From: Eledone cirrhosa
Taxonomy: Eukaryota
DNA: 64,000 bases
NCBI GenBank assembly: GCA_964016885.1
Contig: OZ024744.1
Coordinates: 123,628,001-123,692,000, forward strand
Reading direction: 5' to 3'
Both the position numbers and the translations under genes were made by a program. Shown here one piece after another: positions 38,412-61,737 of this stretch. The first letter of the stretch is position 1. The number at the start of each line of letters is the position of its first letter. Under the pieces are notes generated by a model, which searched no databases, was not told the origin of the DNA, and saw only the letters and a program-made list of their open reading frames with translations.

Positions 38412-38586
38412 TATATATATATATATATATATATATATATATATTTAAAGGTTAAACAAGGTTCAATGAATAAATCAAAGAATAAAGTTTTGCAATAGAT
38501 TAGAAGCACTCCACAGTAATGGTTTTCCGGAGTTATTAATATTAATTCAAAATATTGACAAAAATAGACATTTGTGTGATCAAGTA

Positions 38587-38653
38587 TATTTTATTATACA
38601 TATTTCAGAGGTACTGAGCTATCTTCAACAGTACGTCCTCATCAGATAAAATA
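38587..38653 (-). ncRNA. Minimal type I hammerhead ribozyme, slightly decayed
   Basis: Minus strand: TATTTTAT-CTGATGA-GGACGTACTG(12-nt loop)CAGTACCTCT-GAAA-TATGTA-TA-ATAAAATA. 8-bp stem I, 9 of 10 pairs in stem II, near-palindromic stem III, AUA cleavage triplet. Confidence 0.8.
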
Positions 38654-39742
38654 AGATGATGCATGACATACCCTGACTAAGTAAGATGGTTAAAATTCAG
38701 TCATGGCAAATAAGATATGACAAAATAAGATATGACAAAACTCAATATTTATATACCTTAAGATTGAGACATGAAAAAATTACATATAATACAGAGGGTG
38801 CGTGTGAGAAAGCTTATAAAAATACATAATAATAACCAGCTACTAATATAATAGAAATTTACATAACTGTTAGAGATTCAAATAATTTAAATTATTGAAG
38901 AAAGAAGAAAGAAGAAAGACAGAGAGAGAAGCAAATGAGGAAAAAGATAGTTACTAGAAGTATAGAAATATCTTATGCATTAAAGCAAAAGAAAATTGAT
39001 TAAAGATAGAGAGACAAGGAAGAAGAATTTTTATAGTATAAAGCATAGGGAGGGAGATTTGTATTGTCGTGGATAAATAGTGTATAATTAGATGATGCAA
39101 AAATATATATATGAATAAATAAATAAATAAATATATATTTGGGCATAGCTTTGTGAATGAATAATTTCGAATCGTTGAATTATTTAGAAATAATCAATCA
39201 ATCAAAATATCAAATATATCTGGGTGTAGTTATATGAGGGTTTAATTTTGAGTCCTTAAGTTAATTAGAAATAGACTATTAATCAATTATATATATCCAG
39301 ATGTATCCGGATGACCGTTAAATTTCGAATCATTTATGTTAGCTCAAAATAGTGAATTAATCTAAAGGTATAATATTTCAGGCTATAAAATTTATAAGTA
39401 TTTATATTATAGTATAATATCATATTTAAAGTATTTGCAAACATGAGAAAGAAGAGACTTAATATTTTCTTCATCCTGAAGGTAATCCATATTAAATTAT
39501 ATTAAAAAAAATTTTATATTGAAGAGATTTTATATTAAAAAATAATCATTATATAATTTAGAAAGCAATTACAATTATAACTTTAAAAATTTAAAATTAA
39601 CAATTAGAATGCCCTAAAGTATCCAAAGGCCTTATAATACTTAAAAATGATATTATTAAACTAGATATACGCATTTGTCTAAATTTATACAAAGAGTATA
39701 TTGTTTAAAGTTTAAGACGATATTAGTCAGTTATATATAATA

Positions 39743-41534
39743 CTAGCAGAATGGCCCGGCGTTACTCGGGATTTGCTCTAGGGTTCTTATATATTTGATA
39801 TATATTTATCCCTATTGAGCCTCGTGAAATATGTTTATTTATATTTTGTTATTGTGTATGCAAAAATATCTGTACACGAATATATAATTATATATATATC
39901 TATATATCTAAAACAGAGAATGTCTGTCTGTCTGTCTGTCAGGTCACTAAAACTTGAGAACCACCCAACCGATTGTTTTCAAACTTTACACATGTAATAC
40001 TTATGGTCCTGTGAGTGTTTTGAGCAAAATAATAAGGGACCGCATTAGGCGATTTAGCAATCTCTCTCTATAATTCTTAGTCTTTCTTTTTAGATAGATA
40101 TAATGTTGCGCCCTTATAATATCTGTCTGTATGTCTGGCTGTCTGCATTATGTCATTATGACGCGATCAGTGTGTGTGTGTATATATATGTATCGTAATG
40201 CAGACAGCAAGACATATAGCTTTCCTTCCCCTCTTCCAGCGTCTCTCTCTCTCCCGCTATCCCCCTCTTTTAGTCTGTCTGTTTCTTTCACTCTCACTCT
40301 TTCTCTTTATAACTCACTCACATTAATACTAAAGGGTTAAGGTATTGTTCTCAAAATAAATAATATTAAATCTATGAGATTTTTATATTATGTGAGATAA
40401 AGCCTTTACCATGAAAATAATATAGTATATATAGAGTAATGTAAATGCTAAAGGGTTAATTCCATCAGACCATGTGAGAGAGTTTATAATCACACACGTA
40501 CACTTACACACTCACGCATGCAAACACACACAAACTCACACACACGCGCGCACGTACACACACGCAATAGGTATTCCACTGTTATGTATCTTTGACGCAT
40601 ACAACTCTCAAAAGACGGCGTCTGTCACTCTCTCTCTCTCCCGCTATCCCCCTCTTTTAGTCTGTCTGTTTCTTTCACTTTCACTCTTTCTCTCTGTAAC
40701 TCGTTCACATTTCTCCCCTCTATCGAAAAACGAGGAGGAGGAGGAGGAGTAGAGGGCCACTTCTTCACTTCGCCTCTCCGTTTCTTTCTCTCCCCTCTCA
40801 CTCCCTCATTATGTACAGACATTGGCCACTTCACTAATTCGATCTCTAGGTCAGAATAATTTGAAATTTTTTTTTGCTCAAAACACTTCCAGGGCCATAC
40901 GGGTTACATGTGTAAAGTTTGAAAAAAAACGGTTGGGTACTTCTTGAGTTTTAGGGAAACAGACACACAGACAGACATCCTCTGTTTTATATATATAGAC
41001 TAGCAGAAAACCACCCGGGGGGGCGGTTTTCTGCTAGTCTATATATCTAAAACAGAGAATGTCTGTCAGCTCACTAAAACTTGAGAACCATCCAACCGAT
41101 TGTTTTCAAACTTTAGACATGTAATACTTATGGTCCTGTGAGTGTTTTGAGCAAAAATTATTTCAAATTTTCAATGCCCTAGGGACCGCATTAGGCGATT
41201 TAGCGTTCTCTCTATATAATTCTTAGTCTTTCTTTTTAGATAGATACATAGATATAACGTTGCGCCCTTATAATATCTGTCTGTATGTCTGGCTGTCTGC
41301 ATTATGTCATTATGATGCGCTCAGCGCAATTCCCTCGGCCTCAGTGACCAAAGTCAGTGGAGAGGGGAAGGTAATGTTTCTGTGGCACGTGTTTTAGCGT
41401 CTATTCACTCTCTCCCTCCCGCTATCCCCCTCTCGTAGTCTGTCTCTTTCTTTCACTCTCACTCTCTCTCTACGCACGTGTTTCCACTGTCGGACAGACA
41501 GACAGAGAAATTGCTGGTTATATATATAAGTAGA
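39743..41534 (-). mobile_element. Composite non-autonomous Helitron insertion
   Basis: On the minus strand it starts TC(TACTTATATATATAA...TCTGTCTGTCTG) at 41534 and ends with hairpin cccgagtaacgccggg then CTAG at 39743. It sits at A^T with no TSD; the empty site is visible in the mirror arm at ~46331-46375. Internal + strand Helitron starts at 39899 and ~41038. Confidence 0.8.
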
Positions 41535-41702
41535 TAATATAATAAATAAGTTACTGTTAATATTGTTAAAAGTAAGGTTTTACGTCAATTATTATATTAG
41601 GATCATGTAATACATATATACTATAAATATACAAATCAAACTTCATGAATCATAAAAGATGAGACACGGATTCAAAATAAATAAATGGTTTGCGATCCTA
41701 TA

Positions 41703-59707: not shown

Positions 59708-60036
59708 CCTGTGTCAGTGTTGAACAAAAAGGTGACGTGGTTGCCTTAACACCGTATGGCATAAATTCAGGCTGTTCGGTTTGTTGACAAACAAACGAAC
59801 AAAGCGGCGTTGTAATAAACGTCCGCTAAACTGATGCGTGCATATATGTATGTGTACCTGTATGCATATATGTATATATATGTATATGTATGTATATATA
59901 TATATATATGTATATGTATGCATGCTACTGTACGTCTGTATACATATATGTATGTACGTATACATACATACTTACATTTAAGTAAGTGCCATACTAAGAG
60001 TGAGAAATGAAATTTCGTTTTCATTTTTTTCAACTT

Positions 60037-60718
60037 ATATATATATATATATATGTATATATGTATATATGTATATCTATATATATATGTATATATGTAT
60101 ATCTATATATATATGTATATATGTATAAATATATATATATGTATATATGTATATATATATATATATATGTGTATATGTATATATATATATATATATGTAT
60201 ATATGTATATCTATATATATATGTATCTATATATATATGTATCTATATATATATGTATATATATATATATATGTATCTATATATATATGTATATATATAT
60301 ATATGTATATATATATATATGTATATATATATATATGTATATATATATGTATATATATATATATGTATATATATATGTATATATATATATATGTATATAT
60401 ATATGTATATATATATATATGTATATATATATATGTATATATATATGTGTATATGTATATATATATGTATATGTATATATATATATGTATATATATATAT
60501 ATGTATATATATATGTATATATATATATATGTATATATATATATATGTATATATATATATATGTATATATGTATATATGTATATATATGTATATGTGTAT
60601 ATATATATATGTATATGTATATATATATATATGTGTATATGTATATATATATGTATATATATATATGTATATATATATATGTATATATATATGTATATAT
60701 GTATATGTATATATATAT
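60037..60718. repeat. (TA)n/(TATG) microsatellite
   Basis: Direct reading. Confidence 0.97.
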
Positions 60719-61331
60719 GTTGAAATAAAATGAAAACGAAATTTCATTTCTCACTCTTAGTATGGCACTTACTTAAATGTAAGTATGCATGTATACGTAC
60801 AAACATATATGTATACAGACGTACAGTAGCATGCATATATATATATATATATATATACATGTGCATACAGGTACACATACATATATGCACGTATCAGTTT
60901 AGCGGACGCTTATTATAACGCCGCTTTGTTTGTTTGTAAACAAACTGAACAGCCTGAATTTATGCCATACGGTGTTAAGGCAACCACGTCACCTTTTTGT
61001 TCAACACTGACACAGGAACGATGTACTAGTTTCAAGCTTGTTAGCTATCATCAGCACCGTTTACCCATCTGCCAGATAGTTGAACGTTCGAAAGTATATA
61101 CTTTCCTTATGAAAATTAACGGCTGAGCAGCCTAATTTGCATATTAAACAAAGCGGCGTTATAATAAGCGTCCGCTAAACTGATACGTGCATATATGTAT
61201 GTGTACCTGTATGCATATGTATATATGTATATATATATATATATATATATATATATATATATATATATATATATATGCATGCCACTGTACGTCTGTATAC
61301 ATATATGTATGTACGTATACATGCATACTTA
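60719..61331 (-). mobile_element. Inverted, slightly diverged sub-monomer of the 494-bp unit (60719-61145) with a 5' inverted segment (61146-61331)
   Basis: Reverse complement of the unit from ...ttcaac back to aatatgcaaattagg, followed by a + orientation piece aaacaaagcggcg...catactta. Confidence 0.9.
61017..61061 (-). ncRNA. Hammerhead ribozyme in the inverted copy
   Basis: aacgatgtactagtttcaagcttgttagctatcatcagcaccgtt is the exact reverse complement of the unit 1 motif. Confidence 0.9.
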
Positions 61332-61371
61332 TATATATATGTATATATATATATGTATATATATATATGTA

Positions 61372-61737
61372 TAAAAACAAATAACGAAACGAAATTAAAT
61401 TTCGTTTCGTTTGTAACTCACTTTTGTATGACTGACGCTTAAACAATTAAGTTAAAAATGTACATCCACACATGTATACTGAAATACTAGTATGCATATG
61501 AATACACCCACGTATACATATGTAGATGTACCGAGTTTTTCACTGGTCACTTTACTGTGAGTGTCCAGCTATTCTGTATGTAAACACACAGTATATGTTT
61601 ACATACAGAATAGCTGGACACTCACAGTAAAGTGACCAGTGAAAAACTCGGTACATCTACATATGTATACGTGTGTGTATTCATATGCATACTAGTATTT
61701 CAGTATACATATGTGGATGTACATTTTTAACTTAATT
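61372..61737. repeat. Fold-back element: 142-bp arms (61445-61586 and 61596-61737, 2 mismatches), 9-nt spacer, ~70-bp unique tail on the left, inside (TA)n
   Basis: aattaagttaaaaatgtacatcc...gtaaaca-cacagtata-tgtttac...ggatgtacatttttaacttaatt. Confidence 0.9.

Follow-up and report, generated by a model that had tools for sequence, protein, structure and literature searches.

Inverted duplications with one-sided tails in a polar TA tract of Eledone cirrhosa and their possible origin by twin priming on one RNA

The window analysed here is a stretch of 64,000 nucleotides of Eledone cirrhosa DNA (contig OZ024744.1 of assembly GCA_964016885.1, forward-strand positions 123,628,001 to 123,692,000) which from position 38408 to its end carries a TA-type tract of about 4.1 kb that is split by nine inserts. 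Six of these, E1 to E6, are composed of an inverted and 5'-truncated copy lying head-to-head with a main copy, and have a unique tail at one end. The architecture is already known, as an inverted copy, a one-sided tail and a (TA)n target are the published signature of Penelope-like elements (PLEs), and the interest of the locus therefore lies in mechanism. New are the length of the tails, the extension of the signature to short elements of the retrozyme type, and the junctions, which favour, short of proof, a mechanism with two primers. The origin of the tandem and inverted structures of PLEs and of their preference for microsatellites is stated as open in PMC8557442 (cited from excerpts throughout, as are PMC3846280, PMC4209133, PMC7229834, PMC13282606 and bioRxiv 10.64898/2026.07.22.740005), and the copying of the same RNA from both cut ends of the target could explain how the inverted structure is formed. 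The junctions also yield a rule, namely which arm owns the loop and where the tail-less end is placed, which lends itself to counting in any genome assembly and separates three of the models considered below.

The six inverted duplications

The original prediction described six fold-back insertions of one architecture with arms ranging from 22 bp to 1.5 kb. All six are present (6/6), each flanked by TA-type tracts and each with its unique tail on one side, and the extremes of arm length are found in E4 (22 bp) and E3 (1505 bp) (Table 1). The single architecture holds in part: E2, E3, E4 and E6 are tight hairpins with loops of 0-9 nt, whereas E1 and E5 have long spacers (4,471 bp in E1, or about 2.4 kb once a nested piggyBac-type element is subtracted, and 214 bp in E5) and are head-to-head inverted copies, not hairpins. 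Hairpins with arms of at least 12 bp and loops of up to 10 nt appeared in 0/20 shuffles of the TA-masked region. The tails measure 813, 80, 161, 238, 62 and 72 bp in E1 to E6 respectively and lie on the left in E1, E5 and E6 and on the right in E2, E3 and E4. A direct tandem of the pseudo-long terminal repeat (pLTR) is lacking in 5/6 elements, and a target-site duplication, as read from the spacing of G residues in the tract, is probable in E1 (15 nt) and not discernible in the other five. The sequences are mostly unrelated, as had been claimed, with one related pair among the 15 (E5-E6; z 7.7, 0/200 shuffles).

Orientation can be assigned from hammerheads, an open reading frame (ORF) or family homology. 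Every hammerhead reads toward the tail, which therefore represents the 3' side of the RNA, and the arrangement is head-to-head in 6/6 elements. Full, variant or half hammerhead motifs had been claimed for five elements, and a type I descriptor that allows a mismatch at the base of helix II recovers full motifs in E1 and E5 and a U4C variant in E3 (at 50612, with its mirror at 47764), whereas the degenerate minimal hammerhead in the E4 tail (at 50998) matches only a looser core lacking A9, E2 is coreless and E6 has none. The descriptor gives four non-redundant matches (E1, E3, E5 and the unit of a tandem array described below) against a mean of 0.01 in 100 shuffles. Rfam backs E5 alone and weakly (HH9, E 0.026, below the gathering score); for E1 and E3 no hammerhead family is among the Rfam matches listed, nor is there one among the 150 listed of 310 whole-window matches, where microRNA models matching TA tracts and hairpins dominate. 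Exact scans of metagenome contigs for the hammerhead stems of E3 and E5 gave 0 and 0 matches.

Table 1. Features of the TA-type region, in window coordinates (., no strand given).
Feature	Position	Strand	Remarks
TA tract, left edge	38406-38444	.	first 15 nt repeated at 46835-46849
E1 tail, 813 bp	38445-39257	-	type I hammerhead, full, with its core at 38645; helix III palindromic
E1 left, tail-bearing arm	39258-41703	-	arm pieces 39258-39742 and 41519-41703, split by insert 39743-41518
E1 ORF: reverse transcriptase and C-terminal GIY-YIG	41704-45391	+	5'-truncated, frameshifted; interrupted by piggyBac-type element
E1 long non-coding 3' region	45392-46837	+	includes tail-less right arm 46175-46837
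Polar (TA/TG)n tract	46838-47379	.	
E2	47380-47581	+	58-bp arms 47380-47437 and 47444-47501, one mismatch; 6-nt loop; 80-bp tail
E3	47679-50858	+	arms 47679-49183 and 49193-50697, 1505/1505 identical; loop 49184-49192 (9 nt); 161-bp tail
E4	50898-51179	+	arms 50898-50919 and 50920-50941, 22/22 identical, no loop; 238-bp tail
Polar (TA/TG/TC)n tract, 1,990 bp	51180-53169	.	
Presumed RTE-type LINE, 5'-truncated	53170-55818	+	(GAT)n tail; control in same tract, no inverted duplication
Candidate retrozyme array	55971-60035	+	8.2 head-to-tail copies of 494-bp unit, 99.3-100% identical; no inverted copy
E5	60720-61331	-	two head-to-head 5'-truncated copies of array family; 214-bp spacer; 62-bp tail
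E6	61373-61737	-	72-bp left tail; arms 61445-61586 and 61596-61737, 140/142 identical; 9-nt loop
Polar (TA/TG)n tract	61738-62264	.	followed by 3' end of presumed L1/Tx1-like LINE, minus strand

Junctions of the inverted copies

The data show the structures of the elements, their families and orientation, the microhomologies at the folds and the positions of the ends. The longer complementary DNA (cDNA) belongs to the tail-less arm in three of the four informative elements, E1, E2 and E3. The ORF of E1 continues into its tail-less arm. E2 retains helix II, GAAAC and helix III of a hammerhead whose core is missing, and its fold lies at the base of the 12-bp helix II, which is complete on the tail-less arm only; the reverse complement of 47380-47448 restores this helix followed by GAAAC, so that the loop is continuous with the tail-less arm, and the alternative reading leaves an 11-nt direct repeat without explanation. 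A 5-bp inverted microhomology surrounds 6 nt at this fold. For E3, reads of four sequencing runs were mapped on 49160-50866. In unfolded copies of the family from runs X1, X3 and X4, TGG and CCA flank the 9-nt loop, so that the native sequence offers 3 bp of inverted microhomology precisely where the fold occurs, while the loop in the window reads antisense and hence is continuous with the left, tail-less arm. Since E1, E2 and E3 each have a loop or spacer that runs on from the tail-less arm, the strand that folded contained no template for the tail, and snap-back of a single cDNA primed from the tail end therefore cannot produce these three elements; they call for a second template for the tail, unless one of two tails was lost or the spacer was flipped later.

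The positions of the ends are also informative. The two ends of E3 are each placed within 0-3 nt of one 9-nt motif: an unfolded copy in X1 runs past the tail end of E3 with this motif, TAACTGCTC, which is also found after the tail-less end point at 50697, and a contig of X3 matches 50607-50866, including the start of the TA, without differences. The array and E5 are independent insertions of one family, and the 3' end of the array and the tail end of E5 lie within 2 nt of the same unit position, and the tail-less ends of E5 and its relative E6 align at a homologous ACTTA, which the tail-less arm of E5 reaches after passing through the long internal TA linker of the unit without stopping there. 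The two arms of E5 share private variants, differing from the array at the same four sites, as do the two arms of E3, which both differ from the X1, X3 and X4 contigs at the same sites; this fits copying from a single template.

Raw reads of run X21 contain six opposite-strand joints of the E3 family, of which three are head-to-head (6, 11 and 15 reads, with two start places each). The shorter sides of these three measure 64, 54 and 37 letters, just as far as each joint is from a restriction-cut read start at 49969; the two sides are offset by about 500-600 bp and have no letters in common. Library chimeras are a possible source. The other 3/6 joints were set aside, as their shorter sides of 29-30 letters are unreliable at the likeness used.

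A proposed mechanism with two primers and its alternatives

In L1 twin priming both ends of the cut target prime on one RNA and the resulting cDNAs join by microhomology, which gives an inversion with little overlap; here, the primers would copy overlapping 3' sequence and thereby give an inverted duplication. In the favoured account, which is also the simplest single one, the two nicked strands of the target would each serve as primer for copying one RNA, from two internal start sites, and the resulting cDNAs would join head-to-head; it is given about an even chance of being correct. That both ends are priming sites, and how the cDNAs are joined, we infer from the junctions. PLE machinery would have targeted the polar (TA/TG)n tract again and again, inserting its own RNA in E1 and, in trans, hammerhead-bearing non-autonomous RNAs in E2-E6 and the array. 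The GIY-YIG endonuclease would nick both strands of the target, and each free 3' end would prime reverse transcription of the same RNA from a different internal start site, the distance between the sites becoming the tail. The two antisense cDNAs would extend toward each other and be joined head-to-head, via 2-5 bp of inverted microhomology where they end within about 10 nt of one another (E2, E3, E4 and E6) and without microhomology where their lengths differ (E1 and E5), after which host fill-in would finish the insertion. As an RNase H domain is absent from PLE ORFs, a second copy can be made of the same RNA. A precedent is provided by a PLE protein studied in vitro (Frangieh et al. 2024, PMC11167929): it cuts each of the two target strands and extends them, and the two internal positions of the RNA at which it starts are the borders of the tail. 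The wider reading, in which the inverted repeat and the one-sided tail are the two products of one PLE reaction at programmed start sites, and animal retrozymes integrate likewise with family-specific start signals setting tails of 60-800 bp, is tentative and judged slightly less probable than its contrary.

Several observations weigh against such a mechanism. The spacer of E5 belongs to the tail-bearing arm, and the loops of E4 and E6 are uninformative, the two loop orientations of E6 scoring 96 versus 95. Recombination between the arms, or template switching, can invert a spacer after insertion, and if such flipping is common then ownership by the tail-less arm in 3/4 elements is unremarkable. 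The core of the motif shared by the ends of E3 recurs several times in its 3' region, which makes that match suggestive only, and no motif is common to both ends in E1, E2 or E4. E1 and E4 have their tail-less end upstream of the hammerhead, whereas the start sites of the anole element studied in vitro are downstream. E3's own fold junction was present in 0/4 of the runs mapped, protein-level searches found no autonomous partner for E2-E6, and the evidence as a whole, and with it the mechanism, consists of six insertions at one locus.

The original prediction had instead envisaged second-strand synthesis primed by snap-back of the cDNA. Spelled out, this model has a single event of target-primed reverse transcription from the tail end; the cDNA folds back and primes the second strand, whose synthesis ends early and which is joined to the other target end, and loops on the tail-less side would arise by later inversion of the spacer. 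This is fully adequate for E4, E5 and E6 and agrees with the identical arms of E3 and with the native inverted microhomologies at the folds of E3 (3 bp, 9-nt loop) and E2 (5 bp, 6 nt), yet it breaks down at E1, E2 and E3, each of which would need a separate flip despite arms of 58 bp in E2 and arms that are still 100% identical in E3. It also leaves the conserved positions of the tail-less ends unpredicted, and the joints with long spacers (E1, E5 and the three head-to-head joints in reads) are without microhomology. As a complete account it is considered unlikely. Since annealing of two cDNAs gives the same sequence as would snap-back of the longer cDNA, the idea is retained for the joining step only.

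Self-priming on an antisense template, which may be RNA or released cDNA, would give a full palindrome with a tail at each end of which the endonuclease trims one at integration, as has been suggested (PMC3846280; PMC8557442). It predicts the loop on the tail-less arm seen in E1, E2 and E3, a fixed AT-rich tail-less end and identical arms; the spacer of E5 lies on the wrong arm for it, joints with zero microhomology are hard to self-prime, and the in vitro work assigns both tail borders to start sites of the reverse transcriptase (PMC11167929). It is regarded as equally doubtful.

The inversions could also have been introduced after ordinary insertions by host replication or repair, through template switching at forks or break-induced fold-back at a fragile TA tract. 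No duplication reaches beyond a single element into the tract or a neighbour, all six are head-to-head, other copies of the families show the same geometry, and an RTE-type element and the array lie in the same tract without duplication. Folds made by such repair typically have short inverted microhomologies, and long TA tracts form cruciforms, but this origin is very improbable when set against two-site priming on one RNA. Chimeric reads or assembly artefacts are most improbable of all. They would agree with the 100% identity of the E3 arms along all 1505 bp and with the absence of the E3 junction from the mapped runs, but the arms of E1, E2, E5 and E6 have diverged, only one arm of E1 has received nested insertions, a target-site duplication of E1 is probable, and the mirror of E3 halts at a motif and is taken up again in flanking DNA that differs.

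Affiliation of the elements

E1 is a decayed PLE of the Hydra clade, an assignment made from its motifs. Its ORF encodes a reverse transcriptase followed by a C-terminal GIY-YIG endonuclease, with colinear tblastn matches to five proteins over reverse transcriptase, thumb, linker and endonuclease, and is broken by frameshifts and the piggyBac-type insertion. The reverse transcriptase block is 39-51% identical to the best of 42 fetched proteins, and the translations of 42559-43134 and 45128-45391 contain CxCX5C linker, CxxC and CxH motifs and are without the CCHH cysteine pair. Loosened forms of the RWK and DKT patterns are found in 32/42 (RW[KRHV]) and 38/42 (DK[TS]) of the fetched relatives, in a region that E1 has lost by 5' truncation. 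The Hydra clade consists of PLEs with a C-terminal endonuclease, and nearly all of its families have (TA)n as their target (Craig et al. 2021, PMC8557442). E1 resembles it in the position of the GIY-YIG domain, the three motifs, the missing cysteine pair, the hammerhead and the (TA)n target; RWK- and DKT-like motifs occur in the relatives. Members of the clade are generally shorter than 3 kb as whole elements (PMC8557442), whereas in E1 the non-coding 3' sequence alone takes up about 2.2 kb and the tail 813 bp, and its ORF is broken and 5'-truncated. Naiad and Chlamys were ruled out because the endonuclease of E1 is C-terminal, and a weak match of an E1 arm to the N-terminus of a relative (E 0.86) disappeared with profiles.

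The two pieces of the left arm of E1 match 46175-46837 at 478/485 and 178/181 positions with four gap blocks, its hammerhead is a descriptor match at 38645 on the minus strand with TA on both flanks, and the probable 15-nt target-site duplication (46835-46849) includes 3 nt common to the element end and the target. Two inserts entered E1 later. The piggyBac-type transposon at 43130-45163, inside the endonuclease domain, is decayed and has a TTAA duplication, 8-bp terminal inverted repeats and the Pfam domain DDE_Tnp_1_7. The cluster at 39743-41518, within the left arm only, is presumably Helitron-like judging by its terminal motifs, and contains a diverged head-to-head palindrome (40834-41194) and internal direct repeats. 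An old partial duplication of 75% identity is found at 45661-46152 in the non-coding 3' region.

The array and E5 fit non-LTR retrozymes (LTR, long terminal repeat), a class marked by self-cleavage and circular RNA, which are predicted for this family. The 8.2 units of the array are low in GC and without an ORF, and have eight type I hammerhead cores, of which 7/8 satisfy the full descriptor; helix III is palindromic, and helix II has a U-U mismatch at its base. The 5' end of the array joins the host tract at the internal TA/TG linker; this linker, about 54 bp in each unit, is possibly a captured former target site. The arms of E5 (60774-60931 and 61146-61337) are identical at 153/158 aligned positions and differ in the TA linker, the full hammerhead at 61054 lies in the spacer on the tail-bearing left copy, and the junction has no microhomology. 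E6 is a distant relative of this family that is truncated before any hammerhead.

A tie of E2, E3, E4 and E6 to an autonomous PLE, which the original prediction had named as a check, was sought and none was found: neither a coding remnant nor PLE homology was detected in these four with a profile of the 42 proteins and one Poseidon-like protein against 60 frames, and E5 likewise gave no coding remnant. For E3, Pfam and a phmmer search of one 100-residue frame against 1.84 billion proteins found no coding remnant either, and coding motifs noticed by eye were unconfirmed by Pfam, phmmer and profile searches. Hammerhead type, target and geometry suggest a PLE link for E2-E6, and PLE proteins are their putative makers. 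The E3 family is high-copy and occurs, among the runs listed, in 15 sequencing runs from 11 studies, at least half of the E3 words being present in seven, while the eight with small or near-zero shares contribute nothing to the results given here; it is deep and diverse in X4, and no RNA run is among the listed holders.

Relation to known systems

Published PLE insertions include inverted 5'-truncated copies, a one-sided tail of 30-40 bp and a bias for (TA)n (PMC8557442), and palindromes occur at the inverted junction, for which self-priming on an antisense template was proposed (PMC3846280). E1 to E6 share the head-to-head inverted copy, the tail at one end, the microsatellite target and the palindromic junctions, but their tails of 62-813 bp fall within the published range in 0/6 cases (PMC8557442; PMC3846280). 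They also depart from the general signature in that non-coding elements down to 200 bp are included and the longer cDNA can be assigned to one arm. The protein of the anole Poseidon element offers a likeness in vitro, as both strands are cut and extended, two start sites of the reverse transcriptase bound the tail and the target is AT-rich; it differs in belonging to another clade and in start sites that are 30-40 nt apart, and no link to inverted repeats was made (PMC11167929).

Dimers of minimal hammerheads have been described, some of them as pairs that lie 100-700 bp from each other on opposite strands (PMC4209133), and a PLE origin of retrozymes has been argued (bioRxiv 10.64898/2026.07.22.740005). 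The array resembles animal non-LTR retrozymes in its low-GC tandem units, each with a type I hammerhead and no ORF, and in the palindromic helix III and the U-U mismatch of these hammerheads, and differs from those reported in its unit of 494 bp versus 150-450 bp (PMC7229834; bioRxiv 10.64898/2026.07.22.740005). E5, from the array family, and its relative E6 carry the PLE junction of inverted copy plus tail, which is undescribed in the excerpts of both sources, so that junction anatomy, beyond sequence relationship alone, ties a retrozyme family to PLE integration. The excerpts of an octopus repeat annotation contain nothing on these structures (PMC13282606). The literature searched held no twin-priming account of PLE inverted repeats and no inverted-plus-tail junctions of retrozymes, although older reviews and supplements, including the Hydra consensus files, may contain either.

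The TA tract and its other occupants

Interruptions of the TA tracts have one polarity, as 350/350 in nine tracts (38408-62264) replace the A of TA on the plus strand, with 315 TGT, 35 TCT, 0 ACA and 0 AGA, and this polarity is unchanged on both sides of the elements whichever way they point. It fits a single ancestral polar tract that was split by insertions and enlarged by slippage. The suggestion that the elements extend (TA)n is unsupported because the 350:0 polarity ignores their orientation; slippage copying of the target itself is compatible with the data. Synthesis of the tract from element RNA in the manner of telomerase was considered and receives no support from the polarity. The G residues are irregularly spaced within the tracts, and local higher-order patterns with C occur at 52300-53169.

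The predicted hotspot for PLE and retrozyme families stands insofar as several families are present (the Hydra-clade ORF of E1, and E5 from the array family), but it is not specific to PLEs, as two long interspersed nuclear elements (LINEs) also lie inside the tract. The first, at 53170-55818, which we take to be of the RTE clade, has an open frame of 741 codons with a PHD-like finger inside the reverse transcriptase region, and a second piece of this type, 88% identical, is found at 35259-36520. The other, at 62265-64000 on the minus strand, is presumably L1/Tx1-like; its 3' end has RVT_1 and zf-RVT domains and no fold-back, and its polyadenylation signal abuts the TA tract directly.

The window overall is animal-type repeat DNA, with a 35-kb satellite upstream of the TA region (1-34796) in units of about 83-90 bp. 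The minus strand of the satellite translates to a fragment of a LINE reverse transcriptase thumb, which in the RTE-type ORF at 53201-55423 corresponds to residues 643-678 at 58% identity; the satellite has grown out of retrotransposon coding sequence. Between the satellite and the TA region, at about 36900-37600 on the minus strand, lies a 3' LINE piece with a CCHC finger and motifs of a restriction-like endonuclease, which we take to be R2/R4-like.

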